DNA of 64,000 nucleotides, from the IMG/VR virus record IMGVR_UViG_3300045988_159816. The stretch is one strand, 5' to 3'. Shown piece after piece: positions 1,745 through 58,581 of the stretch. The notes below the pieces were generated by a model. That model searched no databases, was not told the DNA's origin, and was given only the letters and a program-made list of their open reading frames with translations. Numbering within the stretch: position 1 is the stretch's first letter; each line of letters begins with the position of its first letter. Position numbers and translations under genes: made by a program. The DNA is from a virus.

Positions 1745-1803
1745 TAATAATTACTAATAAGCTGGCAAACAATGCCAGTTTATTTTTTTAGCTAAAAATA
1801 GGC

Positions 1804-1840
1804 AAAAAAATAACCCCCTAATAAAGGGGGCATTTTTTTA
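1804..1840. terminator. bidirectional rho-independent terminator
   Basis: A-run, then the ccccct/aggggg stem, then a T7 run. Confidence 0.65.
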
Positions 1841-2099
1841 TTAAACTATGCAACTGCCTGTATAAACTATACAGTTTTTAGCGTTTGTATGCCAACTTAA
1901 ACAGTAGGTATTATGGCTATACTGGTAATGTTGCACATAAATATTAAAGGTAATATTGCCATTTTTGCCCTTGTAGGTTTTTAACCTTAAAACCCTAAAG
2001 TGTAAGGCTTTAATGTACTGCAATAAAACTGCAATAACTTTAGTGGCGTGTTGGCGTGGTAAATTGTGTTTGTTTAATTGGGCAAAGTGCCTTTTAAAA

Positions 2100-3050
2100 T
2101 AAGTTAACATAATTAAAACCCCCTTGTTATTTAAGTTACTTATATTATAACATTTATAAGCAATAATTGCAATATACAATATTAAAAAATTACAAGCAAA
2201 ATATGTAAACATATTGCTTATGTTGCAAACAAAAAAGGCAAAAAACAAGCAAATTACAGGTATTTTAATAAAATAAATAGCGTTTATAGGGGCATAAATG
2301 GGGCTATAAGCAGTTTTATGCAATATAGGTATAAATGTAAGTGGGGTGTTAAAAAGTATTAATACAGGGCAATTTTGCTGGCGGCGGTAAGTAAACATTT
2401 GTGTATTTTGTTGATTTATGAATTAATTAGTAAAAATAATAAAATAATAAATAAAAGGTAATAGTAAAGGTAGGCAAATATGTAAACAAACAGTAAATAA
2501 AACAAGCAAACTAGCAATAATTATTAATAAGTAAAAAGCATAAAAAAGCGAGTAAATAAGGCAGGTTTGGCAGGGTAATAAACAATAAGGAAATTGACAT
2601 TATTAGTAATAATTATTGATAGTGAAGTAATATTAAATAAAATATAAGGTAAAGTAAGGAAGGTAGATAAATAGGTATAATAAAAAATTTAAAACCGCGC
2701 GCTAAATGAAATTATGTGTTTATTAGGAATATAAGAGTAATAGTAATATAAGGTAAAAATAATACTATATAAACAAGAAATAATAGCAATTAAAAGTATT
2801 ATACAAGTAAGCTTTATTAGCTATTGTAGTTATAACAATATAGGCATAAATACTAATATAATAAGGTTTTATAAGGAAAACAAACACTTATAAAATAAGC
2901 TATTTTTAATAGTAATGATTATGAATAAGTAATAAAGTACTATTGTAGTTTAGCTTATTTAGTTATAAATATTAGGTATTAATGCTTATGAAGAGGTATA
3001 AGGAAGTAAAGGAGAATAGTGTAAAAATAGGTTTTAACGGCTGGACAGCA
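2100..3050. other. purine-rich, C-depleted non-coding tract with no credible ORF
   Basis: A sampled 60 nt is roughly 55% A, 17% G, 17% T and 12% C. GGTAA and AGGTA motifs recur throughout. Confidence 0.5.
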
Positions 3051-3521
3051 CATATACTTATAAGCATTTCATATTTTTAACGCCTTTTTACCTGTTTGCA
3101 CCCAATATTTAACAGTATTTGTTATTATTTTATGCTTAAATCAAGTAGTAACAATTATTATTAATCAATAATTGCAAGCAAGAGTTGTTATTACTCGCAA
3201 ACCAAGTGTATATGCCATGTTTGCCGAGTTAAGTAAGTGTTATTATTAGTAATTATGATTAAATGATTATGAAAGAAAATAATAAAAAGTGTTTATTTTA
3301 TATATAGGCAAAACACCAATAATACTTATTAGCAACCAATCAAACAAGCAATAGCAATTTATTAGTAATTATTACTAGCAACAATGACTGACTAATGTGC
3401 CAAAAGTACAATAAACAATAGCGACTAGCTGGCAAGCTCAGTTAGATAATAATAAAGATGATACCCCCCTGCGTCCGTTTTAAGAATTGTTGCTACCACC
3501 CACCCCATCTATAATACATAT

Positions 3522-3742
3522 CCATTATAGAGTCAATTTTACAAGTCAAAAATACAAACCCCCATTGAGTCTTTTTTCTTAATCAAAAATATCCCCCCTT
3601 ATAGAGTCATTTATTCCAATCAAATAATCTATGATTAATTCCCCACAAGGTCAGCAATCCCCCAATATAATCACAAGCAATCCCCCATTAAGTCCTCATA
3701 AATCAAATTCGATAATCAAAAATATCCTGCCCCATTGAGTCA
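3522..3742 (+). repeat. iteron-like array of five direct repeats
   Basis: The five copies, each with C-rich flanks, are ccattatagagtca, cccccattgagtc, ccccccttatagagtca, cccccattaagtc and ccccattgagtca. Their common core is CCaTT(AT)(A/G)AGTC. Two longer units of about 29 nt, starting aatcaaaaatatcc..., lie at about 3581 and 3714. The array sits 60-280 bp upstream of the early promoter. Confidence 0.6.
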
Positions 3743-3798
3743 ACTAATCCAATCAAATAAAGAACGACTAAAAATATTCTTTTCGTATAAATAAAATG

Positions 3799-3827
3799 TT
3801 GACAATAGCAAACTAAAGTATTATAAT
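3799..3827 (+). promoter_or_regulatory. early promoter with consensus TTGACA-17-TATAAT
   Basis: Exact consensus hexamers with a 17-nt spacer. A rightward operon of small genes follows. Confidence 0.7.
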
Positions 3828-3921
3828 AACTATAGTCAAAGTTTTAAATGCAAGTATGAAAAATGCCTTGTACACATTTAAAACTTTACTAATATAAAAG
3901 TAATAAGGGGGCGTATAAAAA

Positions 3922-24004: not shown

Positions 24005-24402
24005 TACCGTCAAATCGTAACCTTATTGTTACTCAAATTGGACAAAATGAAGTTACAAGAACTTATAAAGTTGATTCTTATAATAAAAGAATTATTGGAA
24101 CAACTGATGGACAGCCTGCAATTGAACAAGCAATTTTAAAAAATTTTGATACAGAAAGATTTGCTTATGTTATTTATTCTAAAAATTATGGTATTGAATT
24201 AGAAAAATACATTGGTAAAGATTATGATTTTATTCGTTCAGATTTGCAAAGGGCAATAGAGGAATGTTTATTAGTTGATGCAAGAATTTATTCTATTAAT
24301 AATTTACAATTTACTCAAGAAGGTCTGGATTATATGTCAATTACAATGGATATAGAAACAGAACAAGGTGTTTTGACTACAACTTTAGAGGTGAAAAAAT
24401 GA
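24001..24402 (+). CDS. baseplate wedge protein, gpW/gp25-like (XkdS-position)
   Basis: Position and size. Confidence 0.45.
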   Translation: MIPSNRNLIVTQIGQNEVTRTYKVDSYNKRIIGTTDGQPAIEQAILKNFDTERFAYVIYSKNYGIELEKYIGKDYDFIRSDLQRAIEECLLVDARIYSINNLQFTQEGLDYMSITMDIETEQGVLTTTLEVKK

Positions 24403-25571
24403 ATGCACTTTCAACCTATTTAGAAAAATATTCATATGATTATATTTTATCTGAAGCACTAAAACAAGTTCCGGACACTGTGGATAAACGTGAAGGTGCT
24501 ATTATTCGAGATGCTTTGGCTCCTTGTTGTTATGAGGCAGCGAAGGCTATTTTGTATCTTGCAGATATTATCGAACAAACTTATGTAGCAACTGCAAATG
24601 GACTTTGGCTGGATGGTCGTGTTTTAGAGGGTGGAATTACTCGAGATCCTGCTACATATTCTAAAAATTTAGGTGTTTTTAAAGATCAATTAGGTAATCC
24701 TGTTCAAATTTCTATCGGACAAACTTTCTCGACTGTAGGAGATACCATTTTAAATTATGTTTGTGTACAGGTTTATGTGGATGAAAATGGGGATGTAGTT
24801 CCCGGAAGTTATGTATTACAATGTAATACTATAGGGTCTGTTGGTAATAGTTATATAGGTAGAATCGTTCCTAATGATTATATTGAAAAACTTGCTAGCG
24901 CTGAAATAACAAGTTTATTATATCCCGGCGAAGAAGAAGAAACAGATGAATCTTTACGTGAACGATATTTAGGTAATATGTTAAAAACAGCTTTTGGTGG
25001 TAATGTTGCACAGTATAGACAATGGGCAAAAGAAATTGCAGGTATTGGTGGAGTTCAGGTTTATCCTGTTTGGGCAGGTGGTGGAACAGTTAAATTGAGT
25101 ATTATTGATACGGATTATAATCCGGCTTCTACAGAATTTTGTCAAACTATTTTAGAAATGTTTGATCCAGAAAATTCCGGAGTAGAAAATACTCGTGGAT
25201 TAGGTTTAGGTATCGCTCCAATAGATCATAAAATGACAATATCAACTCCTTTACCAAGAACTATCAATGTATCTGGAAAAATCACATTATTACCCGGATA
25301 TAAATTAGAAACACTATTACCTAAAATTAAAGAATCTATTTCTAATTATCTATTAATGTTAAGACAACATTGGGAAGATAGTGACGAACAAAATAATTAT
25401 TCAGTTATTGTATATTTGGGCAGAATTACAGTTGCTATTTTAAGTGTTGAAGGTGTATCAAGTGCTTATGAATTAAAACTTAATGATACTGATACTGATG
25501 TTGTTTTAACAGAAACAAGTTCTTTACAGGAAGTTCCTGTTTTAGGGTCGGTGAATTTCATTGAACAATAA
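24399..25571 (+). CDS. baseplate J-like protein (XkdT-position)
   Basis: 390 aa at the expected position. Confidence 0.6.
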   Translation: MNALSTYLEKYSYDYILSEALKQVPDTVDKREGAIIRDALAPCCYEAAKAILYLADIIEQTYVATANGLWLDGRVLEGGITRDPATYSKNLGVFKDQLGNPVQISIGQTFSTVGDTILNYVCVQVYVDENGDVVPGSYVLQCNTIGSVGNSYIGRIVPNDYIEKLASAEITSLLYPGEEEETDESLRERYLGNMLKTAFGGNVAQYRQWAKEIAGIGGVQVYPVWAGGGTVKLSIIDTDYNPASTEFCQTILEMFDPENSGVENTRGLGLGIAPIDHKMTISTPLPRTINVSGKITLLPGYKLETLLPKIKESISNYLLMLRQHWEDSDEQNNYSVIVYLGRITVAILSVEGVSSAYELKLNDTDTDVVLTETSSLQEVPVLGSVNFIEQ

Positions 25572-26490
25572 AATTTATAATCGAACTGGGTTATATAGGA
25601 CAAGAATTGGTCGTTATTTTCCAAAATATTATGAAGGTATTTTGGAAACAGATGAACTAATTAAAGTTGAAAATGATATTTGGAATAACATTTATAATTT
25701 GATTGTAAAAGCTAAAAGAAATCAATTTATTGCTTATGCAGATGAAGATGGAATTTATGCTTATGAACAATTATTCCAAATAGTTTCAGATCCCACTACT
25801 GAAACATTAGAAGAAAGAAGATTTAGACTACTTAATAGAGTACAAACATTGTCTTATTATACAATGAATTTTCTTCGCGAAAAATTAGATAATTTATTTG
25901 GCGTGGATAATTATGAAATCCAAATGGATTATCCAAATAGAACATTATATGTCAAGAGTAATTTTTCAAATTATTTTGTTTACAATGAAACGATTGCATT
26001 AATTCACAAAATAAGACCAGCCAATATGGTTTTTGTTAATGTACCTTTAATTCCGTCAACAGTTGAAGTTGGAGAAGAAATCTATCAACAAAAATGGTGG
26101 TGGAATTATATTTTAGGTGGTAAATGGAAAGTCGGTGAAAAACCGATTATTAGTGTACAGGAATTGGCTAAATTAAAATCAGAGGAGGTACAATCCTTGA
26201 CGCCTTTAATGCTTAATAAATTAAAAGAATTTACAGCAGAAACAATTCAAGCTGTGCTAATCAATGATACCTATAAGGTAACAACATTCGTTCAAAAAAT
26301 TATTACTGGTGGGTATTTAAGAATCCAGTATAATATTGAAAATTGGGAACAAATAAAATTAATTACTAATATTAAATTTTTAGACGCTGAAGGATTTATT
26401 TTATCAAATAATGCTGTGTATATTCCAGTGGCTTCAGATACAATGATTGAACACAGAATTAATATTCGGGAGGTTACTTCAAATGGCTAA
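25561..26490 (+). CDS. tail protein (XkdU-position)
   Basis: Position. Confidence 0.4.
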   Translation: MNNKIYNRTGLYRTRIGRYFPKYYEGILETDELIKVENDIWNNIYNLIVKAKRNQFIAYADEDGIYAYEQLFQIVSDPTTETLEERRFRLLNRVQTLSYYTMNFLREKLDNLFGVDNYEIQMDYPNRTLYVKSNFSNYFVYNETIALIHKIRPANMVFVNVPLIPSTVEVGEEIYQQKWWWNYILGGKWKVGEKPIISVQELAKLKSEEVQSLTPLMLNKLKEFTAETIQAVLINDTYKVTTFVQKIITGGYLRIQYNIENWEQIKLITNIKFLDAEGFILSNNAVYIPVASDTMIEHRINIREVTSNG

Positions 26491-27391
26491 TATTATAATG
26501 CAAATTACTGATTACATTGCTCATTTATGGCATAACACATCTGATGATATTGTAATGGCTGAAAATATTAATGGTTGGGAAGATACATTACAACAACATT
26601 CACAATTCTTAAAAAGATTTTCTTGGCAACCGAATACTACTTATCTAAAAAATTCAGTATTACTTTATCCATTCGGATTACATACTAAATTAGTATCTAA
26701 AAACGCTGGTACAAGTGGCAGCGTTGAGCCTACATGGTCAGAGGCTACAGGGGTAGAAGGTTCAAGAACAATTCAGGATAATGATATTGTTTGGGAAGAA
26801 CAACCTATTCAAATATCTTCAGATACTACACCAGTGGGAACCATTAAACAGCAGCTCTGGAACTCAGCACCTCCTGGATATTTAAAACTTGATAAAAGTG
26901 TAATTCTAAATAGATCCGAATATCCGGAATTGTGGGATTTTGTTCAAAAATATATGCCTTTAACTACAGAGGTTGAATGGCAAAAGATGTTGACTCAAAA
27001 TGGGACTTCCGTTGGTTTCTTTTCACAAGGCGACGGCTCTACTACTTTTAGAACACCAATTATGATAGATTTTGGTCGTGGTGGCTCCTCTGCTGGTGCT
27101 TTCTTTAAAGACCAAAATAAACTCCATAACCATACGGCTAATATTGATACTACCCCCGCACAGGGTAGCTTCAGGTTGTGGAAATTTGATCCTGCCGCTA
27201 CTGGTGTATTCTCATCAAGTTATTTAGGAAGATGGGCAAACAGTAAAAACGGCGGTGATGATGCAATGTATCAAATTAATTTTAATCTTGCAAATGCTTT
27301 AAATAACATTACAATCGCTTCTTCGGGAGGATCTGAAGGGTATCCGAAACACGTTACAATGCCATTTTACTTGAGAACTTTAAATATTTAA
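26483..27391 (+). CDS. tail fiber protein with a tail-collar domain, and a C-terminus encoded in an invertible segment
   Basis: Collar motif FFSQGDGSTTFRTP. The last 86 codons lie between perfect inverted repeats. Confidence 0.7.
   Translation: MANIIMQITDYIAHLWHNTSDDIVMAENINGWEDTLQQHSQFLKRFSWQPNTTYLKNSVLLYPFGLHTKLVSKNAGTSGSVEPTWSEATGVEGSRTIQDNDIVWEEQPIQISSDTTPVGTIKQQLWNSAPPGYLKLDKSVILNRSEYPELWDFVQKYMPLTTEVEWQKMLTQNGTSVGFFSQGDGSTTFRTPIMIDFGRGGSSAGAFFKDQNKLHNHTANIDTTPAQGSFRLWKFDPAATGVFSSSYLGRWANSKNGGDDAMYQINFNLANALNNITIASSGGSEGYPKHVTMPFYLRTLNI
27099..27132. repeat. left inverted repeat (34 bp) inside the tail fiber gene
   Basis: ctttctttaaagaccaaaataaactccataacca. Its exact reverse complement lies at 27642-27675. 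Confidence 0.85.
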
Positions 27392-27641
27392 TGTTCTTAA
27401 ATAGTAAGGCATAATGATATGTTTAGGATAGGCTTCTGATCCACCACTATCACTCATGTTTAAATCGTGGGAGTGTGTACCATTAAAGTTGACAACTTCA
27501 CGAGCATCACCTTTATGAGCACAACTACCAGCCCATTGACCAGTTCTGGAAAATACTCCTGTTGTTCGACCTGAATCTTGTCCAACTTGTTGAGCTGCAA
27601 TAAAACTACCTGTTAAACTTTTAGATTGGATGCTTCCAGAG
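27133..27641. mobile_element. putative invertible segment carrying two alternative, convergent tail-fiber C-terminal cassettes (Mu G-segment-like)
   Basis: The minus strand read inward from 27641 is an 87-codon frame in phase with the left repeat. It ends ...YPKHIIMPYYLRTLNI*, against the forward ...YPKHVTMPFYLRTLNI*. The two cassettes meet at the palindrome ttaaatatttaa. Confidence 0.65.
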
Positions 27642-27675
27642 TGGTTATGGAGTTTATTTTGGTCTTTAAAGAAAG
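27642..27675. repeat. right inverted repeat (34 bp)
   Basis: tggttatggagtttattttggtctttaaagaaag, the reverse complement of 27099-27132. It overlaps the RBS of the next gene. Confidence 0.85.
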
Positions 27676-27684
27676 GAGTATAAA

Positions 27685-28869
27685 GTGATTAAATTTAGAA
27701 TATTCAATCAACGATTAAGTTATTATGGAGATTCTGAAGTAGTTGCAGATAGTAAAGGATATTTAACATTTACACTTGAAACCTCTGAAGATTGGGCTAA
27801 TTATGTAGGTAAGACTGTACAATTTACAAGGGACGGAAAAACTTACAGTGTAACCAATATTTCAGACGGCGTAGAGTATGTTGTTCCTTGGGAAGTCCTT
27901 GTTGGTGCAGGAGTAATGCAAGTAAATGCGTTCGCTGTATCAATGGTGGGAAGTAAAAGAGCAACTACAAATGAAATCCAAATAGAGGTTATAGACAGTG
28001 GATTTAATCCGGACGATCTAGAACCAACAGATCCAACTCCTGATATTTTTGAACAGTATGTTCAACAAGTTCAGGAAAATGCAGATAAAGCAGAACAAGC
28101 GGCTAAAGATGCAAAAGATTCTGCGGATACTGCGCAAGAATTAAAAAACAAAATTGATACTATTTATCAAAATGTTAAAGATATTAAGAGTGACATAGAA
28201 GATTTATTAGAACAAGTACAGAATTACGCTAATAATGCCTATCAATATGCAGAAGCCGCTAAATTATCTGCACAACAAGCTTCAAAATCTGAAACAGAAG
28301 CAGGTCGATATGCAGGCGAAGCAAAGGTATTTTCTCAAAATGCTAAAGAATCAGAAAATAATGCTAAAATCAGCGCAGATTCTGCTAAAGAATCAGAAAA
28401 TAATGCTAAAATCAGCGCAGATTCTGCTAAAGGTAATGCAGAATTAGTCTTAGCGACTAAAGAAGAGATAGATACTATTTATGCAAATATCGAAATAATT
28501 AAAGCGGATATTGATAATAAGTATACACAAATTAATTCACAAGCAGATTCAATAAATTCGATGTATACTCAAATACAAGAATGGTATAATTCTTTTTTAC
28601 AATCAGCTTCTTATATAAATTTTACAGATGAAGTTTCTGAAGATTTATGGAATGCAGACGAAAATGATTATACTCTATCTCTTGATACATCAGGAAGGGC
28701 TATTTTAAATATTCAAATGTTGGATACGAATGGATTATACACAAGAAGTCCTTTTGTAGATATGGAATTTCCTGATGACGTTAGTGTAACAATCAGGGCT
28801 ATTGCTCCTTTTACTGGTAGACTATGCTTATACGAATTAATGAAAGGAAGCGAAACTAATGCTCAATAA
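27685..28869 (+). CDS. tail fiber protein
   Basis: 394 aa, GTG start after GAAAGGAG, containing a tandem 14-aa repeat. Confidence 0.6.
   Translation: MIKFRIFNQRLSYYGDSEVVADSKGYLTFTLETSEDWANYVGKTVQFTRDGKTYSVTNISDGVEYVVPWEVLVGAGVMQVNAFAVSMVGSKRATTNEIQIEVIDSGFNPDDLEPTDPTPDIFEQYVQQVQENADKAEQAAKDAKDSADTAQELKNKIDTIYQNVKDIKSDIEDLLEQVQNYANNAYQYAEAAKLSAQQASKSETEAGRYAGEAKVFSQNAKESENNAKISADSAKESENNAKISADSAKGNAELVLATKEEIDTIYANIEIIKADIDNKYTQINSQADSINSMYTQIQEWYNSFLQSASYINFTDEVSEDLWNADENDYTLSLDTSGRAILNIQMLDTNGLYTRSPFVDMEFPDDVSVTIRAIAPFTGRLCLYELMKGSETNAQ
28342..28425 (+). repeat. perfect 42-bp tandem duplication inside the tail fiber gene
   Basis: The unit gctaaagaatcagaaaataatgctaaaatcagcgcagattct occurs twice, encoding AKESENNAKISADS twice. 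Confidence 0.8.
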
Positions 28870-29413
28870 AATTAGTCAAGTTATTTCTGGATTATCCCTA
28901 ATCAAATTTATTAATTCTGTTATAGATGGCATAAACGCTCATTTATCTGATTATAATAATCCTCATAAAGTAACAGCGGCTCAATTAGGTTTATCTAATG
29001 CGTATAAATATAAGGGTAGTGTTGAAACTTATGAGGATTTACCAACATCAGCTGAAAGTGGTGATGTTTATAATGTTGTTAAAGGTGATAAAGAACAAGG
29101 TATTGCAGATGGAGCAAATTTTGCTTGGGACGGTACTAAATGGGATAATTTAGGCGGGTTATTAACTGGTACAGGTGCAATTAGGGTTGAATTTGTGGCT
29201 GCAAGTTGGCAAATTAATTCTTCCACTAATTTATATGAACTTCCATTAAATCTTTTTGAACAAGTGGAAAGTGTTGGTGTTTTAAGTGTTGAGGCTGTTG
29301 AAAATAATGAAAGACATAGCGTTTTAATCGACACTATTGGGAATAAAGTAGTTGCTTTAAATGCTTTTGATGGTGCTATTTATTATACAACTTTTCGGGA
29401 GGTAACACAATGA
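28859..29413 (+). CDS. hypothetical tail fiber-associated protein
   Basis: ORF between two fiber genes. Confidence 0.5.
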   Translation: MLNKISQVISGLSLIKFINSVIDGINAHLSDYNNPHKVTAAQLGLSNAYKYKGSVETYEDLPTSAESGDVYNVVKGDKEQGIADGANFAWDGTKWDNLGGLLTGTGAIRVEFVAASWQINSSTNLYELPLNLFEQVESVGVLSVEAVENNERHSVLIDTIGNKVVALNAFDGAIYYTTFREVTQ

Positions 29414-31245
29414 AAAAAATTTCTCGCCAGCAAGATGTAACAGTAGCTAATGTTTTAAGATGTTTAAATGAATTAAATGATGAAAATATGGTTTATGTCG
29501 GAACAGAACCTCCGGAAGAAGTTAAAAAAGGATTAATATGGGTAAATCCAGAAGAAATAACAGAAGAACCTGAAAAAATTTATGTTGGTCATATGGTTGG
29601 GGATATCTATCCTGTTAGTTATACCGAATTAGAATCGGGTCAATTAGTATTAAAAGGTCAGTTAGTTAGTCGTGAAATTTATGGTGTATTATGGGCATGG
29701 TTGCAAAAACACCCTAGTTTACTAATAACAGAACAAGAATATACCGAATATTTAAATTCCTCAGAAAATTTATGTTGTCCTTATTTTAGCACAGGAACAA
29801 CAGAAAATAATTTCAGATTACCTAATTATAATGGCGTATTCTTTAAAGCAACTAATGATACTTCTAAAATTAACGAATTTGAAACTGATAAACAGAGAAA
29901 TATAACTGGTAGCTATGTTCAACTAGCTACCAGTTGGGATGATGGTGGAAGAGGTGTAATATCATTTTCAATGTCAGGAGCTTATTCTTCTACAGATGGT
30001 GGTACAACTAATGACAGTATACATCAGGATCCCAGTGATAGGACAGGTATAACAATAGATTTCGACGCCTCTCGTTCCGTCGGAACTGAGCACACTGGCA
30101 GCGAAGTTAAACCTAAAAGTCTTAATCAGGTATGGGTAGTTCAAGCTTTCGGAGTAATCACTAATGCAAGTTCCCTTGATATCTCTGTTTTAGAACAACA
30201 AATACAACAAATTACAGATTATAGCAATTATGAAGTTTCGTGTATTAAGAATAATCCAGTTTATTACAATAGAGATCAATTATTTTATTCTAATAAAACA
30301 AATATCACAATTCCAAAAAATCTAAAAATAAACATTGATGGAGAATGTTATATAAGTACCATTAATAAAGTTCTTCAATTATCCACTGTAGACACTCCTC
30401 AAAATTTAGCCGGGAAAGATGTTTACATTTATGCTTGTAAACCTCAAGATATTTCTTCTACAGAGCCAATTTTCATTTTGTCTTTAAATAGTACAGTGCC
30501 CACAGGTTATACTGCAAGTTCTAGCCGTAAAATAGGTGGATTTCATTGTTTATGTGCAGATGTTGGTACAATAGATGGACATACTTTATCCGGATATGTT
30601 ACTGGAGATATTTTACCCGCATCAATTTGGGATTTACTACACAGACCTAAAGGAGATTCAGAAGGACTTGCTTATGATGAAGTTTCTGAATGTTGGTTAA
30701 GTATTTATCAATTAAGTTGGGACGGCACTAAATTAGTCAGTGTTTATAATGGAGTTATTGCAGATGGTACTTCAACTAAAAAATGGCATGGTGAAGCTTT
30801 TATTGAACAATTAATGAATCAAAAAATGCGATTACCTTGGCGACATGAATTTCAGATGGCGGCAAAAGGAAGTAATGAAGGAACATCAATTAAGAATGCA
30901 GCAGATCCTAATACTACAGGTGGTCATGTAGATAGTAACAATAGAAGAATGATTAGTAATATTGGATTAGAAGATTGTTGTGGCTGTTCTTGGCAATGGG
31001 CTATGGATTTAGGCTTTGCAGGGGGATCAGGATGGAATGATTCTGTTTATAATTCCAATGTTGATTCTCAAAGATATGGTCAGTCTTATGGTACTTTATA
31101 TCGTTTGCTCCTGGGCGCTTGCTGGTATAGCGGTTCGTATTGCGGTTCTCGTTCTGTCGCTTGTCATTCTGGCTCGTCTAGTGTCATTTCCGCTTACTCT
31201 GCGCGCGGTGCGTCGGAGCCGAGGGTTGTCACGAATTTAAACTAA
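29410..31245 (+). CDS. tail fiber and receptor-binding protein, the DGR target
   Basis: N-terminal tail-collar motif (YPVSYTELESGQLVLKGQLVSREIYGVLW). The C-terminal 38 codons form the variable repeat, a Cys/Ser/Tyr-rich lectin-like tail. Confidence 0.8.
   Translation: MKKISRQQDVTVANVLRCLNELNDENMVYVGTEPPEEVKKGLIWVNPEEITEEPEKIYVGHMVGDIYPVSYTELESGQLVLKGQLVSREIYGVLWAWLQKHPSLLITEQEYTEYLNSSENLCCPYFSTGTTENNFRLPNYNGVFFKATNDTSKINEFETDKQRNITGSYVQLATSWDDGGRGVISFSMSGAYSSTDGGTTNDSIHQDPSDRTGITIDFDASRSVGTEHTGSEVKPKSLNQVWVVQAFGVITNASSLDISVLEQQIQQITDYSNYEVSCIKNNPVYYNRDQLFYSNKTNITIPKNLKINIDGECYISTINKVLQLSTVDTPQNLAGKDVYIYACKPQDISSTEPIFILSLNSTVPTGYTASSSRKIGGFHCLCADVGTIDGHTLSGYVTGDILPASIWDLLHRPKGDSEGLAYDEVSECWLSIYQLSWDGTKLVSVYNGVIADGTSTKKWHGEAFIEQLMNQKMRLPWRHEFQMAAKGSNEGTSIKNAADPNTTGGHVDSNNRRMISNIGLEDCCGCSWQWAMDLGFAGGSGWNDSVYNSNVDSQRYGQSYGTLYRLLLGACWYSGSYCGSRSVACHSGSSSVISAYSARGASEPRVVTNLN
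31103..31217 (+). repeat. DGR variable repeat
   Basis: 115 bp matching the template repeat except at 20 positions, all of which are A in the template. Confidence 0.9.
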
Positions 31246-31278
31246 TGACCGAGGGAACTATTTTACGAGGAAAACGGT

Positions 31279-31300
31279 GGCTAGTATGAAATACTAGCCA
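31279..31300 (+). promoter_or_regulatory. hairpin downstream of the variable repeat (candidate DGR homing element)
   Basis: ggctagtat-GAAA-atactagcc, a 9-bp stem with a 4-nt loop, about 35 nt after the stop. Confidence 0.5.
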
Positions 31301-31368
31301 AAGCTAACTTTTTAGTGTATAATATTAATTAGGTTAATGTATTTTTCAGTAGCTGGCGGTTTTTTCGG

Positions 31369-31483
31369 GTTTGCTCATGGGCGCTAACTGGAATAACAGT
31401 TCGAATTGCAGTTCTCGTTCTGTCAATTGTAATAATGGCTCGTCTAATGTCAATTCCAATTACTCTGCACGCAGTACGTCGGA
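31369..31483 (+). repeat. DGR template repeat
   Basis: Intergenic copy of the variable repeat, rich in AAC and AAT codons in the corresponding frame. Confidence 0.9.
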
Positions 31484-31593
31484 TACGGGGAAAATTAGCA
31501 GGTGCGGCTAACCCTCGGCTGATACATTGACCTTGCTGAAAAGCAAAATACGAAAAAGGGTGAAGCAGTGGTTAGTAGTTAATTCGAACGTCA

Positions 31594-32640
31594 TTGCTTC
31601 AATTTTTAATAATGAAAAGACATAATAATTTATTTGACAAAATTGTAGACAAGGATAATCTTTTGTTAGCGTATAAAAAAGCTAAAAAACATAAAAGCTG
31701 GCAACAAAAAGTTATTCGTGTTGAAAAAGATTTGGATAATTTAATTGAAGAATTAAGATTAAGTCTAATTAATGGTACTTACAAAACAGCTGAATACAGA
31801 ACAAAGAAAATTTATGAACCAAAAGAAAGAACAATTTATGTACTTCCATTTTATCCAGATCGCATTGTTCATCACGCTATAATGAATATTTTAGAACCTA
31901 TATGGGATAACCTTTTTATTTCTGATAGTTATGCTTGTAGAAATGGTAAAGGTCAACATAAAGGAAGTCAAAAATGTATGGAATTTGTTCGCAAAAATAA
32001 GTATTGTTTAAAATGTGATATTAGTAAATTTTATCCATCTATAAATCATGAAATATTAAAATTAATTATTCGTAAGAAAATAAAATGTAAACGCACTTTA
32101 AATTTATTAGATACCATTATTGATAGTATTGATGGAGAAACAAATATTCCTATTGGTAATTATCTTAGTCAATGGTTTGGAAATTTATATTTAAACGAAT
32201 TAGATATGTTTATGAAACATGATAATAAAATTAAATGTTATATTCGTTATTGTGATGATTTTCTTTTATTTTCTAATGATAAAGCTTTATTAAAAGAAAT
32301 GGCTATTAAAATCAAAGATTATGTTGAAAATATTTTAAAATTAAGATTAAGTAAATGTAATTTATTCCCGACTTCTCAGGGAATAGATTTTTTAGGTTAT
32401 AGGCATTTTTCGTCTGGATATATTCTTGTTCGTAAAACTACAGCTAAAAGAATGAAGAAAAGAATCCGGAGATTAAAATGGGAATTGGCTAAAAAGAAAA
32501 TTACTAATGATAGAGCTTTATCTGTTATTGGAAGTATTTCGGGCTGGTTAAAATGGGCTAATACATATAACCTTCAAATATCCTTACAACTAAATGAATT
32601 AAAAGAATCTATAGGAGGTTCTGTTAATGAACAAATTTAG
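31594..32640 (+). CDS. DGR reverse transcriptase
   Basis: Motifs IGNYLSQ (the DGR-type IGxxxSQ) and RYCDDFLLF (YxDD). About 340 aa. The true start may be the ATG at 31612. Confidence 0.9.
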   Translation: MLQFLIMKRHNNLFDKIVDKDNLLLAYKKAKKHKSWQQKVIRVEKDLDNLIEELRLSLINGTYKTAEYRTKKIYEPKERTIYVLPFYPDRIVHHAIMNILEPIWDNLFISDSYACRNGKGQHKGSQKCMEFVRKNKYCLKCDISKFYPSINHEILKLIIRKKIKCKRTLNLLDTIIDSIDGETNIPIGNYLSQWFGNLYLNELDMFMKHDNKIKCYIRYCDDFLLFSNDKALLKEMAIKIKDYVENILKLRLSKCNLFPTSQGIDFLGYRHFSSGYILVRKTTAKRMKKRIRRLKWELAKKKITNDRALSVIGSISGWLKWANTYNLQISLQLNELKESIGGSVNEQI

Positions 32641-46761: not shown

Positions 46762-47625
46762 ATGAAGGTAATTTGTACTCGAAACAATGCAGAATTTGAA
46801 TTTGTAAGAATGGAAGGCGAAGATTATGTATTAGCCGATCCGGAAACTGGTAAAGAAAAAATTATTAATGCAAAAGCATATAAACGCTTTTACAAAGAAG
46901 TTGAAGAACCTGAAGATCCGGTTGTTGATGAAGAAGTAGAAGAAGAAACTGAATCTGAAGATGTTGAAGACGAGGAAGAGGTTGAGGAAGCTGAGGAGGA
47001 AGAAACTCCGAAAGAAGAACCTAAAACTAAAAAAGCCCCTGCAAAAGAAAAGAAAGCAGCTGCTAAAGCTAAAGAACCTAAAACTAAAAAAGTCAAGGAG
47101 CCAAAAGCACCTCGTGAAATTTCTCCCTTGAAAGATATTGTAGAAAAGATTGTTCTTGCAGCTGATTGTACAATTTTTGAAACACAAGTAAAAGGTTTCC
47201 ATACTTTTAAAGTTGCTGAACATATGTGCATGGCAATGACTTTTAGTACAAAAGGTGTTGTGCTTTGGTTGCGTACTAAAGTATTAAAAGATTTAGATTT
47301 GGGAATTAATTACAAACCTATGAAGCATATGTTTGATGCTCGTTTGCCCATTACTGAAGTAACAGATGAAAATGTTGATTTGATTCGCAAACTTGTAGCT
47401 GCTCATGTAGAGTATCAAAAGGGCATTAATAAACAACGTGCAGAAAAGGTTTTAAAACAAGAAGCTGCTCGTAAAAAACGTGAAGAAAAAGCTGAAGCTA
47501 AGAAAAAAGAAGAAATGGCTAAAAAGTTGGGAGTTAAATCTAAAAAATCTAAAAAAGAAGAAAAAGTTGAAAAACCAGTAGAAGCTGAAGTAGAAGAATC
47601 CGAAGAGGTTGAAGAGGAGGAATAA
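46762..47625 (+). CDS. hypothetical protein with highly acidic and Lys-rich low-complexity segments
   Basis: ORF with E/D runs and KKxxKK runs. Confidence 0.5.
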   Translation: MKVICTRNNAEFEFVRMEGEDYVLADPETGKEKIINAKAYKRFYKEVEEPEDPVVDEEVEEETESEDVEDEEEVEEAEEEETPKEEPKTKKAPAKEKKAAAKAKEPKTKKVKEPKAPREISPLKDIVEKIVLAADCTIFETQVKGFHTFKVAEHMCMAMTFSTKGVVLWLRTKVLKDLDLGINYKPMKHMFDARLPITEVTDENVDLIRKLVAAHVEYQKGINKQRAEKVLKQEAARKKREEKAEAKKKEEMAKKLGVKSKKSKKEEKVEKPVEAEVEESEEVEEEE

Positions 47626-47628
47626 TCA

Positions 47629-48267
47629 ATGGCTCGCGTAAAACTTGAAGATGTCGATAAAGTAGTAACATCATCAACACAGTTTTTTCAAATGAAAAAC
47701 GATGGGGATATCGAAAAAGTTAATATATTATATGAAACAATTGATGATGTTGAATGTCATTCCCTTCATAAAGTTAAAGTTAATGGACGCGATCGTTGGG
47801 TTGAATGCTTGCGGGAAGTTGGGGATGAAGTAGAGGCTTGTCCTTTATGTGCTTCCGGAAGTAAAATAGCATTAAGAGTATTTGTTCCATTGTATGTTAA
47901 TGGTCAGGTTCAATTTTGGGAACGTGGTAAGAGTTTTGTTGATGATTTGAAAAGTTATTGTAATCGTTATAAACCTTTATGCGGTATGAATTTTGAAATT
48001 GAACGTCAGGGTGAAAAAGGCAATACTCAAACAAAATATCAATTCTTTCCATTAGAAAAGAATGGCAAAACTTTGAAGGACTTTCCGGAGGTTCCGGAAG
48101 TTCCAGACCAGTTCTTGCTTACTAAAACGGCTGATGAACTGTATGACTTTTTAGATACGGGTATTATGCCAGGAGTTGAAGCAACACAAGAAAAGAAACA
48201 GGAAGTTCAGCCAAGACGTCGAGAGGGTAGTCCACGAACAAACCGCCGTCGTGAAGTTCAATTTTAA
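47629..48267 (+). CDS. zinc-finger protein, possibly ssDNA-binding
   Basis: A C..H...C..C cluster. Positioned between the primase and the polymerase. Confidence 0.4.
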   Translation: MARVKLEDVDKVVTSSTQFFQMKNDGDIEKVNILYETIDDVECHSLHKVKVNGRDRWVECLREVGDEVEACPLCASGSKIALRVFVPLYVNGQVQFWERGKSFVDDLKSYCNRYKPLCGMNFEIERQGEKGNTQTKYQFFPLEKNGKTLKDFPEVPEVPDQFLLTKTADELYDFLDTGIMPGVEATQEKKQEVQPRRREGSPRTNRRREVQF

Positions 48268-50649: not shown

Positions 50650-51573
50650 ATGTTTGATTTATACTTCGCAGGTCAAGTAACAGACCATGTTGACAAATGT
50701 TTATTTGACATGGGAGCTAACCATCTATTTTCTTTTTTAAATGAAAGAAAAAATATTGATAGATGGATCAGGTGGGTCGATACCTATGGCAAAAGGGGAA
50801 AGTTATTTATTGATAGTGGTGCTTTTACAGCGTGGACTAAAGGTACTTATATCAACGTAGATGACTATATTTATTTCTTAAATGATAGGGTACAGTATAT
50901 TGACCTTTTTGGGCAGTTGGATTGTATTCCCGGAAACATCAGAAATAAACCAACACAGGCACAAGTAAATGATGCGGCTGTTAAAACTTGGAAAAACTTC
51001 ATTTATATGAGGGAGAGAGTGCTTAACAAAAAAGGTTTATTATTTACTTTTCATGTAGGTGAGCCTATATGGTGTCTGCGTAGAGCCTTAGAGTGGAAAG
51101 ACGAAAATGGGTTGCCATTGGACTATATTGCCCTCGGTGGTATGGTTGGTAAGCCTAAAGACGTACAAAAGAATTTTTTAGATTTATGTTTTGACATTAT
51201 TAAAAGTTCTAGTAATCCGAATGTCAAGGTTCATGCTTTTGGAATGACAGTAAGAAAGATATTACAGTCATTTCCAGTATTTTCAGCAGATAGTTCTTCA
51301 TGGATTCAAAGTGGTCACAATGGAGCTATTTATACTCCTTGGGGTACAGTTATTATTAGTGCTCAGCAAAAGGATAAAATAGTTCATCCTTTAAATGGTA
51401 GTGCGGTTGCTTTAGAAGACTTGAAAAATTATATTTCCAGTAAGAAGTTCGATTTTGAACAGCTTATGGAAGATTATGTTCAGCGTGATCTATGGAATGT
51501 TACATTCTTAATGGATTGGGCAAAAGATTATACCTATCATGGTGGAAAACTTATCAGGAGGCGATTATTTTGA
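50650..51573 (+). CDS. dpdA: DpdA-like DNA-guanine transglycosylase (TGT paralog)
   Basis: FIDSGAF resembles the TGT DSGGFQ motif. Adjacent to queC, queD, queE and folE. Confidence 0.55.
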   Translation: MFDLYFAGQVTDHVDKCLFDMGANHLFSFLNERKNIDRWIRWVDTYGKRGKLFIDSGAFTAWTKGTYINVDDYIYFLNDRVQYIDLFGQLDCIPGNIRNKPTQAQVNDAAVKTWKNFIYMRERVLNKKGLLFTFHVGEPIWCLRRALEWKDENGLPLDYIALGGMVGKPKDVQKNFLDLCFDIIKSSSNPNVKVHAFGMTVRKILQSFPVFSADSSSWIQSGHNGAIYTPWGTVIISAQQKDKIVHPLNGSAVALEDLKNYISSKKFDFEQLMEDYVQRDLWNVTFLMDWAKDYTYHGGKLIRRRLF

Positions 51574-52250: not shown

Positions 52251-52254
52251 TAAT

Positions 52255-52443
52255 ATGAACTGTTTAAAAGGTGAAATTATCAAAGAAATGGAAGCTAAAG
52301 CTAAAAGGGCTATTGACCAAAAAGAATATACAATGGGCAATGTTTTAGTCAATGCAGAACAGTTATTAAGCCTTATTTATGAAGTTAAAGTAAAAAGATA
52401 TCATAATCATATTAAACCAGGAGGAAAGAAATGTACACAGTAA
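52255..52443 (+). CDS. hypothetical small protein
   Basis: ORF. Confidence 0.4.
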   Translation: MNCLKGEIIKEMEAKAKRAIDQKEYTMGNVLVNAEQLLSLIYEVKVKRYHNHIKPGGKKCTQ

Positions 52444-54004: not shown

Positions 54005-55080
54005 AGATTGATATTATAACTACCGAATTAAAGGATATGGTTGCTCGAGCAATTAAAGGTGCAAGCTGTAATAAAATTCTTCCTTTAACGAATTATATGG
54101 GCTTTGAGGTTGTTGATAATACCCTGTATTTAAAAACTACTGACGGCTTGCATTATTTGACAGTATGTAAAGATAAAGTAAAATGTGAAGACTTTGCCTG
54201 TGTACTACCTGTGCAAACTTTTGCTAAATTAGTAAATAAAACCACCAGTGAACACATTATTTTAACTGTTAAAGACGGTGTACTTACCGTTAAAGGTAAT
54301 GGTTATTACCACATTGAGCTTGTACTGGACGAAAATGGGGATATATTGCAATTTCCGGATACGTCTATAGAAATACCTGAAGATATTAAGGCGGTAAAGG
54401 TTAAACAGCCAATTCTTCAGGCGGTTTTCGATATTTGTACAGCAAGTTTATCTAAAACAATGGAAAATGCAGTTTTAACAGGTTATTTCTTTGATAAGAA
54501 TGTAATTACTACAGACAGTATTAAACTTTGCGTTTATTCAGTCAATGTATTTAAAAGACCTGCACTGTTATCTGTAGAGATGCTTAAACTTGCAACTTTA
54601 ATTCCGGAAGAAGATATATCTGTTTATTTTGTTGATAACGATGTAATCTTTAAAACCGAAACAATGGAAATTGCAGGTGCACAATTAGAAGATATTGAAA
54701 CATATCCAGTTGAAGAACTTGAATCCTTTTTAGAAACAGAATTTCCTTCAAATTGTGTAGTAAATAAGGGGCTTGTACTTTCTGCCCTTGACCGTTTAAA
54801 TATCTTTGTATCTGAATATGATAAAAACACTATTAAATTAGTATTTACTAAAGATGGTATGAAAATTATTTCTAGACGTACTAAAGCCGAAGAAACTATT
54901 CCTTATATGGAGAGTGAAAGCTTTGAAGAGTTTGAATGTTTGGTAGACATTCAACAATTTAAAGACCAGTTAAACGCTTTAGCAACCGATTCTATCGACT
55001 TGTCTTATGGTTCTCCTCAAGCTATTAAGATTGTCGAAGGTAAGGTAGTACAAATTCTTTCTTTGGTTGATGAAGAATAA
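54001..55080 (+). CDS. DNA polymerase sliding clamp (beta-like)
   Basis: 359 aa, three-domain-sized, next to the clamp-loader genes. Confidence 0.55.
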   Translation: MKIDIITTELKDMVARAIKGASCNKILPLTNYMGFEVVDNTLYLKTTDGLHYLTVCKDKVKCEDFACVLPVQTFAKLVNKTTSEHIILTVKDGVLTVKGNGYYHIELVLDENGDILQFPDTSIEIPEDIKAVKVKQPILQAVFDICTASLSKTMENAVLTGYFFDKNVITTDSIKLCVYSVNVFKRPALLSVEMLKLATLIPEEDISVYFVDNDVIFKTETMEIAGAQLEDIETYPVEELESFLETEFPSNCVVNKGLVLSALDRLNIFVSEYDKNTIKLVFTKDGMKIISRRTKAEETIPYMESESFEEFECLVDIQQFKDQLNALATDSIDLSYGSPQAIKIVEGKVVQILSLVDEE

Positions 55081-55871
55081 TGGCTAAATCATCTTTAAAA
55101 AATTTACTTGCCATAGTAAATGAAACAAAGAAGCAAAGCCCTATTGCAGAATCCTTTTTGATGGACTTAATACAGTCCATCGAAAGGACTGCAAATAAGA
55201 ATGAGAAAAAACCTAGTCCTCATTATAAGCCCAGTAGTTTGAATTGTATTCGTAATATGTATTATCAAATTGTAGGTCAAGATATGGACGAAAGTATTAA
55301 AGAGGCTGTGCTTGTTGGTATTGGGGAAAGTGGTACGGATCGTCACGAACGTATCCAAAAAGCAATTATGCAAATGAAATCAAACGGTTTTGATTGCGAA
55401 TATTTAGATGTTGGGGAATATGTAGAAGAAAATGAAATTCCAGGATTGATTGTAAAAGGTAAAAGTGGAGTAGAAACACGACTTTTCAATGAACCATGGA
55501 ATTTAAGTTTTCTTTGTGATGGTATTATTAAATATAAAGGTCAATATTATATATTTGAATTTAAAACTGAAGTATCTAAGAAATTTTTAATGCGTAAAGA
55601 TGTTGATGAAGACCATAAAAAACAGGCAACAGCCTATGCTTTATCTTTAGGAATTGATAAAGTTTTATTTGTTTATGAATGTCGAGATAACTGTGATAAA
55701 AAATCTTATATGTTAGATGTAACAGATGACATGAAAAAGAATTTAATACAGTTAATTCAGGATTGCGATGATTATGTAGATGCTAATGTAGTCCCGCCTA
55801 AACCAAAAGATATTAAAACTAAAACTTGTCAATATTGTAAATATCGCCTAGCGTGCAGAAAGGACGTATAA
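55080..55871 (+). CDS. Cas4/RecB-like PD-(D/E)XK exonuclease with a Cys cluster
   Basis: D...EFK motif and a C-terminal CQYCKYRLAC. Confidence 0.6.
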   Translation: MAKSSLKNLLAIVNETKKQSPIAESFLMDLIQSIERTANKNEKKPSPHYKPSSLNCIRNMYYQIVGQDMDESIKEAVLVGIGESGTDRHERIQKAIMQMKSNGFDCEYLDVGEYVEENEIPGLIVKGKSGVETRLFNEPWNLSFLCDGIIKYKGQYYIFEFKTEVSKKFLMRKDVDEDHKKQATAYALSLGIDKVLFVYECRDNCDKKSYMLDVTDDMKKNLIQLIQDCDDYVDANVVPPKPKDIKTKTCQYCKYRLACRKDV

Positions 55872-55872
55872 T

Positions 55873-56358
55873 ATGCCTGTATCCCTCGGAAAAAAGTTTG
55901 AAGAACACTTTTCAACCCAACTTGAAGACGCTGCAATATGTTTTGATCGTTTTAAAGATGATACCGCAGGGTATAAAGGTATTCGTAATATATGCGACTT
56001 TTCTGTCTTTTTTAATGGGTATTTATTTTACATCGAATGTAAAAGTATACATGGCAAAACCTTTAATTATGCTAATTTAACTGATAATCAATACACTGGA
56101 TTATTAGATAAATGTGAATATGATAAAGTTATTGCAGGAGTTTTAATATGGTTTATAGACTGTGATGTTACGGTATTTGTTCCTATTTCTGTTATTAAAC
56201 AGCATAAGGAATTATTAAACTATAAATCGTTTAAAAGCTATGAAATTCCGGATATGTGTACTATTTTTGAAGGTAAAAAATTAAGAAAATTCTTTAAATA
56301 TGATATAGATAAAAATTTATCTACGATCATAAGAAAGGCTAATCAATATGGAAGTTGA
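55873..56358 (+). CDS. RecU-like Holliday junction resolvase (putative)
   Basis: PD-(D/E)XK-like CDFSV...IECKS. Confidence 0.45.
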   Translation: MPVSLGKKFEEHFSTQLEDAAICFDRFKDDTAGYKGIRNICDFSVFFNGYLFYIECKSIHGKTFNYANLTDNQYTGLLDKCEYDKVIAGVLIWFIDCDVTVFVPISVIKQHKELLNYKSFKSYEIPDMCTIFEGKKLRKFFKYDIDKNLSTIIRKANQYGS

Positions 56359-56870: not shown

Positions 56871-57443
56871 ATGTATACAGCTGAAATATTTACTAGATAT
56901 ATCAATCAAATTAAAAGTCCGGAAGTAAAGAATATTGTTAAAAGAGGATTAGCAGAATGTCCTGAAGAATTTTATACAATGGCAGCGTCAACTACAGGTA
57001 AGTATCATCCTAAATTCGCTCTTGGTGAAGGTGGACTCATTCGTCATACGTTAGCGGCTTGTTGTTGGGCAGTAGATATGCTGGAAATGGAACAGTATGA
57101 AGAATTGAGAGCCTATAAAGACTTAATTTTAGCAGCTTTAATTCTTCATGACAGCGTTAAAAAGGGTACAGGCAAAAGTAAATATACCTTATTTGAACAT
57201 CCAATATTTGCGGCTGAAATGGTAGAAAGAATTAGTAAAGAACTGTATAATGAAACATTCAATGAAGTGTATAAAGAAAAAGGTCATTATATAGCTTGTT
57301 TAATTGCTAGTCATATGGGGCAATGGAATGTTAATCTTTATAGTAAAACAATATTACCAAAACCTAAAACTGCAACTCAAAAATTTGTTCATTTATGTGA
57401 CTATTTAGCTAGTCGAAAAGGTGATGTTGATGTCCAATATTGA
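56871..57443 (+). CDS. HD-domain phosphohydrolase
   Basis: H...HD...D pattern (KYHPKF...ILHDS). Confidence 0.65.
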   Translation: MYTAEIFTRYINQIKSPEVKNIVKRGLAECPEEFYTMAASTTGKYHPKFALGEGGLIRHTLAACCWAVDMLEMEQYEELRAYKDLILAALILHDSVKKGTGKSKYTLFEHPIFAAEMVERISKELYNETFNEVYKEKGHYIACLIASHMGQWNVNLYSKTILPKPKTATQKFVHLCDYLASRKGDVDVQY

Positions 57444-58581
57444 TGCTGTATTAAAAGAAATCAATAAAAAATTTAAAGCTGAACTTGTATTTCAAGGTAG
57501 GGCTGAATATGATGTTAAAGAAACAGAAAAGATTCAGTTTACAAGTTGCAGATTAAATTATATGCTCTATGGGGGCTTACCTCGTGGAAAACTGATTGAG
57601 TTTTCGGGAGAAGAAAATTCAGGCAAAACAACTACAGCTTTAGATGCTGTAGGAAATGCACAACAACAATTCATCAAAGAGTATAAAGAACAACTTGCAG
57701 AATTGGAAGAAATTCCAAAAAGAAATAAAGCAGAAGAAGAGGCTTATCGTAAATTAAAAGCAAGAGGAGCTTTAAAGGCTTTATTTGTAGATTGTGAAAA
57801 TACTTTAGATGAAGAGTGGGCAGAAAAGCTTGGTGTTGATGTAGATTCCTTGTATGTTGTAAAACCTACCAATCAAACGGCAGAACAAATCTTTGATATC
57901 ATTGAAAGTCTTGTTGAAACAGAAGAATTTGGAATCGTTGTCATTGATAGTTTTGCAGTTATGTTATCTCAAGATGAATATGACGAATCTGCTGAAAAAA
58001 GAACATATGGCGGTATATCCAAACCTCTAACGAAATTTACTAAAAAAATGATACAGTTGTGTAGTAGGTTAAATGTTACCTTAATTGGTATAAACCAGCT
58101 CAGGGACAAAATAAATAGTCCATATGGGGGGAAAGATACTCCCGGCGGCAGGGCTTGGAAACATAATGCAGTATTACGTTTATTTTTTAGCAAAGGAACA
58201 TATTTTGATGAAAATTTAAAAGATTTAACTCGTAATACGGAAGAACCAGCTGGTAATTATGTCATGATTAATATAGCTAAAACTAAAGTTTGTAAACCTG
58301 ATAGACGTGTTGGTTGCTATACATTAAATTATACATTCGGTATTGATTGGATAAATGATTTAGTTGAAATGGGACTTAAATTAGGTTATATTGATCAGGC
58401 TGGTGCATGGTTTAGATTTATTGATGAAGATGGCGTTATTATGTGTGATGAAAATGGTGATGATATTAAATTACAAGGTAAAGCCTCTGTAACTGCCTTT
58501 TTAGAAGATGAAGCAAATGCAGATATTTTGCAAGATTTTGACCAATTAATTAATAGTAAAATTTCAAGTAACGTTCGGTAA
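57421..58581 (+). CDS. RecA-family recombinase or ATPase
   Basis: Walker A GEENSGKT in a RecA-like core. Confidence 0.65.
   Translation: MMLMSNIDAVLKEINKKFKAELVFQGRAEYDVKETEKIQFTSCRLNYMLYGGLPRGKLIEFSGEENSGKTTTALDAVGNAQQQFIKEYKEQLAELEEIPKRNKAEEEAYRKLKARGALKALFVDCENTLDEEWAEKLGVDVDSLYVVKPTNQTAEQIFDIIESLVETEEFGIVVIDSFAVMLSQDEYDESAEKRTYGGISKPLTKFTKKMIQLCSRLNVTLIGINQLRDKINSPYGGKDTPGGRAWKHNAVLRLFFSKGTYFDENLKDLTRNTEEPAGNYVMINIAKTKVCKPDRRVGCYTLNYTFGIDWINDLVEMGLKLGYIDQAGAWFRFIDEDGVIMCDENGDDIKLQGKASVTAFLEDEANADILQDFDQLINSKISSNVR

Follow-up and report, generated by a model that had tools for sequence, protein, structure and literature searches.

The 64,000-nucleotide (nt) stretch of viral DNA analyzed here (IMG/VR record IMGVR_UViG_3300045988_159816, hereafter the window) contains a tail-fiber gene, at 26483-27391, whose C-terminal tip is almost certainly swapped by a genuine, recurrent and precise DNA inversion. 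The gene carries the left arm (IR-L) of a perfect 34-nt inverted repeat (IR), and the 509 nt between this arm and its downstream partner (IR-R) encode two alternative tips on opposite strands, a forward one (F) that is expressed in the window and a reverse one (R) that is silent. The marks by which a gene-altering programmed inversion is recognized were found at this locus, namely the IR pair, a homologous inverted 3′ cassette, and both orientations of the segment.

An invertible segment in the tail-fiber gene

The forward gene encodes 302 residues ending in ...GSEGYPKHVTMPFYLRTLNI*, and the same gene is called on public contigs. On the minus strand, the frame entering from IR-R stays open for 86 residues past the IR and terminates at a stop codon, with the C-terminus ...GSEAYPKHIIMPYYLRTLNI*, which is homologous to that of F. 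The IR begins at codon position 2 on both strands, and FFKDQNKLHNH is encoded either way. Because F covers 259 nt and R covers 262 nt with a 12-nt overlap, the invertible segment is without any non-coding base. The first-pass annotation, made from the letters of the window, had described a perfect 34-bp repeat with 509 bp between the arms, a reverse cassette in phase with the left arm, and homologous C-termini meeting tail to tail at the palindrome TTAAATATTTAA; repeat analysis and translation bore out each of these points, and a frame error was not found. No other long perfect IR occurs across the window, where the runners-up are 27 nt or shorter and imperfect, and by a hand estimate at 32% GC, at most about 1e-9 repeats of this kind would arise by chance. 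The window holds no further copies of the IR, that is, one segment and one IR pair only, which is not the layout of a shufflon with its repeats of about 19 bp.

The homologous cassette ends give an imperfect palindrome at 27326-27445, whose RNA would fold into a hairpin of -45 kcal/mol (z = -5.6) that is centered on the stop codons and identical in either orientation. This hairpin is probably a by-product of the tail-to-tail layout. A promoter and terminator scan around the switch gave nothing beyond shuffled expectation.

Flipped copies of the locus were found in public data. An exact pattern search for the flipped junction in IMG/VR and the JGI metagenomes gave 0 matches, which proved to be a false negative due to single-nucleotide polymorphisms (SNPs) in the flipped strains, and the flipped loci were recovered by a protein route and a mismatch-tolerant scan instead. 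The protein obtained by flipping the segment in silico retrieved P0001, which is 98% identical at 100% coverage. A protein that joins the window's own alleles in exactly the flipped combination also exists (P0121, present on 7 public contigs), and P0135, found on 10 contigs, is the exact reciprocal for the flipped genome L016; the cluster sizes of 214 and 234 members are not clean orientation counts, as short open reading frames (ORFs) on silent cassettes are included. At the nucleotide level, the segment is reverse-complemented between intact arms in L014-L017, and the R tip is fused to the same constant region, in the expressed orientation, in L014-L017, L022-L029, L043 and L053. Locus L028 is the window with only the 509 bp reverse-complemented, showing 0 mismatches over 793 + 509 + 700 nt, and the segments of L023 and L024 likewise show 0 mismatches to that of the window. 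The early proposal that inversion would fuse an alternative tip to the constant body is thus realized in nature, with intact IRs and including the window alleles exactly flipped.

Inverted repeats can mislead de Bruijn assemblers, and one hairpin contig that joins both junction types (L027) is clearly chimeric. That the flipped contigs as a whole are assembly artifacts of the IR is, however, scarcely credible. The contigs came from assemblies with k = 99-141 (k99, k119 and k141; SPAdes NODE), so that the IR of 34-36 nt lies far below the final k of 99, 119 or 141, and the flipped arrangement was seen in many independent samples, assemblers and lineages, together with lineage-specific SNPs.

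Inversion has also recurred. When the 7.4 kb that precede the switch are used to build a tree of 16 near-identical genomes, the orientation must have changed at least 4-5 times, and the nearest F/R pair differs at 6 of 7,400 nt. Both orientations probably coexist in single samples: F and R contigs were found in one metagenome, and a 64,185-nt IMG/VR contig comprises the entire genome minus the segment, ending precisely at the inner edge of both arms; the hairpin contig, with its two junction types, is a further indirect sign. In the sister species (species 2), whose constant region is 79% identical, this switch likewise occurs in either state.

Both cassettes are intact in all the 46 loci that have both arms. 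For the F cassette, 22 distinct alleles were found, all intact whether expressed or silent, with a ratio of non-synonymous to synonymous polymorphism (pN/pS) of 0.23; for the R cassette, pN/pS is 0.27-0.32. Both tips are kept functional by selection, and from their position, their divergence and the selection acting on both, we infer that the two tips bind different receptors. Deletions were seen in the sister species. One of 12 nt lies in frame within the silent R cassette (L052), and another, of 67 nt, takes away the inner part of the right arm together with the first part of the silent cassette in L055 (3590-4400), whose locus is naturally locked in the R state.

A static polymorphism, in which one or a few old inversions are spread by ordinary recombination between phages and switching is not ongoing, would have to be reconciled with these observations. 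Such a history is conceivable in that the evidence is a between-sample comparison of assemblies and the phages are clearly mosaic, a diversity-generating retroelement (DGR) being present or absent and tips being exchanged. But identical segment alleles are found in both orientations on backgrounds 0-0.1% apart, exact reciprocal chimeras occur in two different lineages, the silent cassette is under purifying selection with no broken copy among the 46, and assembly breaks precisely at the IR arms. Moreover, importing the opposite arrangement would itself require crossovers in the same 34-nt arms or their immediate flanks. We therefore consider an arrested polymorphism very improbable.

Arms that evolve in concert and a genome without a recognizable invertase

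Almost all of the 46 loci carry both arms of the IR in perfectly conserved form. Four synonymous changes were found within it (positions 8, 14, 17 and 23, a span of 16 nt), and each is mirrored in both arms: TTT>TTC in L049, and GAC>GAT, CAA>CAG and AAA>AAG in species 2. Changes confined to one arm are rare: L037 has a single one, and L041/L058, from the sister species, have two that are non-synonymous. In the locked L055, the arm left without a partner has started to drift. The strand exchange region of site-specific recombinases measures 2 bp in the serine family and 6-8 bp in the tyrosine family, and these enzymes are not known to homogenize their sites. Because the mirrored changes span 16 nt, which is wider than either exchange region, they indicate gene conversion and homologous pairing of the arms. 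The pattern of substitutions thus points to arms that evolve in concert via gene conversion.

By inspection, the IR lacks the AAACC..GGTTT-type dyad of gix/hix sites, so that no 26-bp crossover site of that kind was recognized. Its sole symmetry is a 10-bp palindrome, TCTTTAAAGA, which is destroyed in L049 while the arms remain perfect.

Public contigs of 65.4-66.5 kb from many human-gut metagenomes indicate a genome of about 66.2 kb, and the window is therefore short by about 2.2 kb, in which a DUF2786/DUF7168 protein is accompanied by small ORFs only. Scans of the window with Pfam, PHROGs and NCBIfam, made for every ORF of about 120 aa or more that lacked a precomputed Pfam match, and the precomputed Pfam matches of the other called genes, including those in the remaining 2.2 kb, revealed no serine or tyrosine recombinase and no transposase; the structural, lysis, replication and recombination modules were all covered. 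Family scans showed that the Phage_integrase domain of tyrosine recombinases is absent from the phage genome, no integrase was found in it, and tblastn of the window with Hin and Gin sequences returned nothing better than E = 0.3. The first-pass annotation had reported no recognizable recombinase in the 64 kb, which holds under all these searches, and had concluded that the invertase must be host-encoded, outside the window or of an unrecognized type. The second of these three falls with the survey of the 2.2 kb, and the other two stand as rivals; the option that the data favor most, homologous recombination across the identity tract, had been omitted from the list.

The baseplate-attached fiber consists of a 205-residue constant body, the conserved junction FFKDQNKLHNH and a tip module of about 86 residues, and since the F and R tips lie tail to tail between two 34-nt copies encoding the junction motif, inversion puts the other tip in frame. 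According to this last option, the flip would be a reciprocal homologous recombination, or a related template switch during replication, across the 34-36-nt identity tract, with no dedicated invertase. It could be executed by the phage RecA, the RecU-like resolvase, the Cas4-like exonuclease and the single-strand DNA-binding protein (SSB) listed in Table 1, or by host equivalents. Identity of the arms would be maintained by gene conversion, and selection through variation of the host receptor would amplify whichever orientation is useful. The absence of a recognized recombinase and the concerted evolution of the arms are both accounted for by a homology-driven flip. The lack of dyad symmetry in the IR, the drift of the orphaned arm in L055, the full set of recombination genes and the varying copy number of a 42-nt direct repeat 700 nt away also speak in its favor. 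Our confidence that homologous recombination or template switching across the 34-36-nt tract drives the flip is evenly balanced, and we put forward with slightly more reserve the fuller proposal of a programmed, recombinase-free host-range switch that uses 34 nt of in-frame identity and general (phage RecA/RecU-type) recombination, beside a DGR acting on a second fiber.

Several considerations weigh against this proposal. With 34 nt, the tract is close to the shortest that RecA-type recombination can use. Roughly 1e-5 events per replication, combined with selection, would suffice to explain the population data, which fit a fast programmed switch and rare recombination alike. The arms could undergo gene conversion even if a site-specific enzyme makes the inversions. 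A new recombinase might be hidden among the roughly 35 ORFs that are small or unannotated, 46762-47625 among them, and a promiscuous host invertase may be at work.

Such a host-encoded enzyme, either a promiscuous tyrosine recombinase or a serine invertase, would act in trans on the IRs, and the phage would carry the sites only. RecV of Clostridioides difficile, a tyrosine recombinase, is promiscuous in this way and inverts many switches that are unrelated to each other, and the Gin, Cin and Pin invertases complement each other in trans. The lack of a recognizable recombinase in the phage genome agrees with this explanation, as do the sharply conserved IR boundaries with near-perfect arms in almost all loci, and the nearest cultured relatives of the terminase (46-52% identical) belong to phages of Bacillota, a group where such recombinases exist. 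However, the IR shows neither dyad symmetry nor a shared invertase-site motif, and its sequence drifts at four synonymous positions without loss of identity between the arms, as expected if identity matters more than a particular sequence. In addition, a pattern search found 0 occurrences of the IR in 185,579 reference genomes, indicating no host sites of the same kind, and a virulent phage would have to rely on a host enzyme within a short lytic cycle. Taken together, inversion by a host enzyme is rather unlikely, though it deserves serious attention.

A phage recombinase of an unrecognized family could also reside among the unannotated ORFs. Several ORFs have no family assignment, and one of them encodes a 287-aa protein between primase and SSB (46762-47625), which has no Pfam, PHROG, NCBIfam or Protein Data Bank match and whose single-sequence AlphaFold2 model, with a predicted local distance difference test score (pLDDT) of 56, is uninformative and too poor for fold search. 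On the other hand, no candidate gene is encoded beside the switch, the segment itself has no spare base, and same-species genomes with a single non-switching tip are equal in length to the switchers (66.1-66.4 kb) and syntenic across the 21-kb stretch compared. The 287-aa protein itself sits in the replication module, and it could be a recombination or replication accessory factor. An unrecognized phage enzyme is thus improbable.

Table 1. Positions of the switch, the putative recombination factors and other features in the window
Feature	Position	Strand	Remarks
Constant part of tail-fiber gene	26483..27098	+	residues 1-205, common to both isoforms; translation
IR-L, switch point	27099..27132	+	encodes (A)FFKDQNKLHNH
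F cassette, tip expressed in window	27133..27391	+	TANIDTTPAQGSF...MPFYLRTLNI*
Imperfect palindrome, 63-nt arms	27326..27445	.	from homologous C-terminal cassette ends; 75% complementary
12-nt perfect palindrome TTAAATATTTAA	27380..27391	.	both cassettes end here; last three codons and stop overlap
R cassette, tip silent in window	27380..27641	-	in phase with IR; SGSIQSKSLTGSF...MPYYLRTLNI*
IR-R	27642..27675	-	outer end overlaps Shine-Dalgarno AAGGAG (27673-27678) of next gene
Downstream coiled-coil fiber protein, 394 aa	27685..28869	+	GTG start at 27685; outside switch
DGR target	29410-31245		
DGR variable repeat (VR)	31095-31224		
DGR template repeat (TR)	31361-31490		
DGR reverse transcriptase	31594-32640		
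SSB	47629..48267	+	PHROG 14578, 4e-46; putative accessory factor
Queuine tRNA-ribosyltransferase-like (DpdA-like)	50650-51573		
QueC	51492-52250		
Small ORF in queuosine-type cluster	52431-52766		
Radical-SAM QueE-like protein	52750-53409		
GTP cyclohydrolase I	53348-54004		
Cas4-like PD-(D/E)XK exonuclease	55080..55871	+	PHROG 1706, 2e-43; NCBIfam cas4 2e-08, below curated cutoff; candidate end-resection factor
Holliday-junction resolvase, RecU-like	55873..56358	+	PHROG 843, 1.7e-20; weak precomputed RecU match; candidate trans-acting factor
RecA-family recombinase	57421..58581	+	Pfam RecA 2.8e-37; NCBIfam recA 8e-47; candidate trans-acting factor

The fiber protein, its relatives and the genomic surroundings

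The fiber gene directly follows those for baseplate J (24399-25571) and a Mu gp48-like protein (25561-26490), within a contractile-tail module of sheath, tube, tape measure and baseplate proteins, and its product has PHROG tail-fiber matches. Residues 131-194 or so of the constant region match the repeated collar-like domains of the T5 L-shaped tail fiber (8hqz, E = 3.8e-16). The variable module weakly matches the T4 gp37 needle tip (2xgf, E = 0.54), with HxH motifs and the final strand in common, and the R cassette carries a second HxH motif; judged by this weak match, the variable module resembles gp37-type tips in its two boundaries, an HxH motif at the start and a conserved strand at the C-terminus. 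An AlphaFold model of the fiber monomer (pLDDT 56) was too poor for fold search. Alignment of 17 homologues shows a common layout with a conserved body, a DQNKxHxH junction, a hypervariable module and a conserved MP(Y/F)(Y/F)LRxLNI end.

In other genomes, a third, unrelated tip of about 120 aa is joined to the same constant body, even to the species-1 body (L077/L078, P0012), and more distant relatives (L059-L070 of the P0080 type, and L073-L076) have many other tips between the same two conserved boundaries. None of these relatives with the third or other tips has an IR or a silent cassette. The fiber tip is mobile as a module. Among the more distant relatives, both species 3 and the 325-328-aa tip type lack an IR and a silent cassette, and hence give no test of sequence-independence. 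Whereas relatives swap tips horizontally and hold one tip per genome, only species 1 and 2 hold two and toggle between them.

The phage is an uncultured, apparently virulent gut phage without a close cultured relative. A protein profile found no copy of it in the 185,579 reference genomes, and megablast of 12 kb against cultured phages gave no match. Two long contigs, OIYW01000024.1 (115 kb; L047/L048) and OGHC01000030.1 (132 kb; L061/L062), each contain two genome copies about 64-66 kb apart, both copies having the same switch orientation, which suggests concatemeric or circularly permuted assemblies.

The RecA, RecU-like and Cas4-like genes lie in a compact recombination module (55080-58581), which also holds a 173-aa protein with a faint YraN-like nuclease match and an HD-domain protein. 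A very AT-rich region of about 2.2 kb without a credible gene (1745-3921) may be an origin or a regulatory region. The minus-strand ORF at 1841-2398, which is called there on public contigs and at 185 aa is of invertase size, was rejected as a recombinase, being of low complexity and without recombinase features. Rfam and tRNA scans of the window gave no matches. A cluster of 7-deazaguanine/queuosine type (50650-54004) suggests a modified guanine in the phage DNA, serving anti-restriction.

A DGR lies 1.7 kb downstream of the switch (29410-32640) and acts on a second fiber protein. Its target is Mtd-like (PF21916, 2.6e-22), the reverse transcriptase matches RVT_1 (1e-17), and TR and VR, each 130 nt long, differ at 27 positions, of which 21 are adenines in TR; the element is apparently active. 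In some otherwise near-identical strains (L003, L018, L022 and L026), the DGR module is replaced by unrelated genes. The DGR reverse transcriptase was ruled out as the flipping agent because DGR-less strains were found in both orientations. As in the tropism switching of BPP-1 by Mtd, the common goal with the present switch is a diversified receptor-binding fiber tip, but the mechanisms, mutagenic retrohoming and inversion, are unrelated, and inversion is seen also in the DGR-less strains L022 and L026.

Within the downstream fiber gene, 700 nt beyond the switch, a 42-nt perfect tandem repeat (28341-28424; 14 aa, AKESENNAKISADS) occurs in 1 or 2 copies, giving a protein of 380 or 394 aa. Its copy number differs between genomes with 0 mismatches in 7.4 kb (L001 and L008, L016 and L017). 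This change in otherwise identical genomes indicates that recombination between short repeats, or slippage, outpaces point mutation in these phages.

Relation to known inversion systems and significance

Textbooks describe tail-fiber inversion in temperate phages that encode the invertase themselves. The first-pass annotation had called the locus Mu G-segment-like, and the switching logic is indeed that of the G segment of Mu with Gin, and also of C with Cin in P1 and P7, P with Pin in e14, and Min in p15B: the IRs measure about 34 bp, the tail-fiber gene contains the left one, and a constant N-terminal part is combined with alternative C-terminal receptor-binding parts on opposite strands. 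Membership in the Gin/Hin group was not borne out, owing to the lack of an invertase, of a dyad crossover site and of fiber-assembly genes. Mu encodes a serine invertase, while none is recognizable in the present phage, adjacent to the switch or anywhere else in the genome, and the dyad-symmetric 26-bp gix/hix-type site, with two inverted 12-bp half-sites around a 2-bp core, is not present in the IR. The G segment of Mu measures 3-4 kb against 0.5 kb here, where the segment holds two tips only, without fiber-assembly (U/U′-type) genes and without room for a Fis-dependent recombinational enhancer, for which there is no invertase gene as a site either. Finally, Mu is temperate and the present phage is apparently virulent, with arms that appear to evolve in concert. 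Inversion of the Mu G type alters host range, and the comparison with Mu draws in part on the summaries in two reports (PMC9881135; bioRxiv 10.64898/2026.02.14.705889).

The element also resembles gene-altering programmed inversions, or intragenic invertons, of bacteria and prophages (PMC9881135; bioRxiv 10.1101/2023.03.11.532203), in which the 3′ part of a coding sequence is likewise swapped for an inverted copy. In the inversion survey, tail fibers and recombinases are both among the enriched gene families, and the confirmed tail-fiber cases are in prophages (PMC9881135). The present element differs from those cases in that it resides in a free, integrase-less phage genome without a recombinase.

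Genome isomers of plastids and herpesviruses arise by flip-flop across long IRs without a recombinase. A similar case is the cyanophage group of A-1(L), N-1 and Elbi, where a 30-kb segment flips across IRs of 400-700 nt (bioRxiv 10.64898/2026.02.14.705889). As here, the cyanophage orientations coexist and are uncorrelated with phylogeny, no dedicated recombinase was identified, and homologous recombination was suggested. This isomerization is the nearest mechanistic precedent, but its IRs are ten to twenty times longer and it inverts a large multi-gene block with no protein recoded, whereas here a tract of 34 nt recodes one protein in frame.

Literature searches yielded no description of this phage or of its switch. 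The locus gives a Mu-like outcome in a widespread, uncultured and apparently virulent phage of the human gut, whose complete genome has no recognizable invertase and whose population data document the flipping. If homology alone drives the flip, a switch within a coding sequence needs just two cassettes and about 34 nt of identity. In that case, minimal invertons of this kind would be missed by finders anchored on recombinases, and surface genes of phages and bacteria could often contain them. Host-range prediction from single assemblies of gut phages would be affected as well, as each genome would represent two specificities plus a DGR. The locus offers a compact, testable substrate on which to determine the shortest repeat that phage recombination can use and the minimum that an inversion switch needs.

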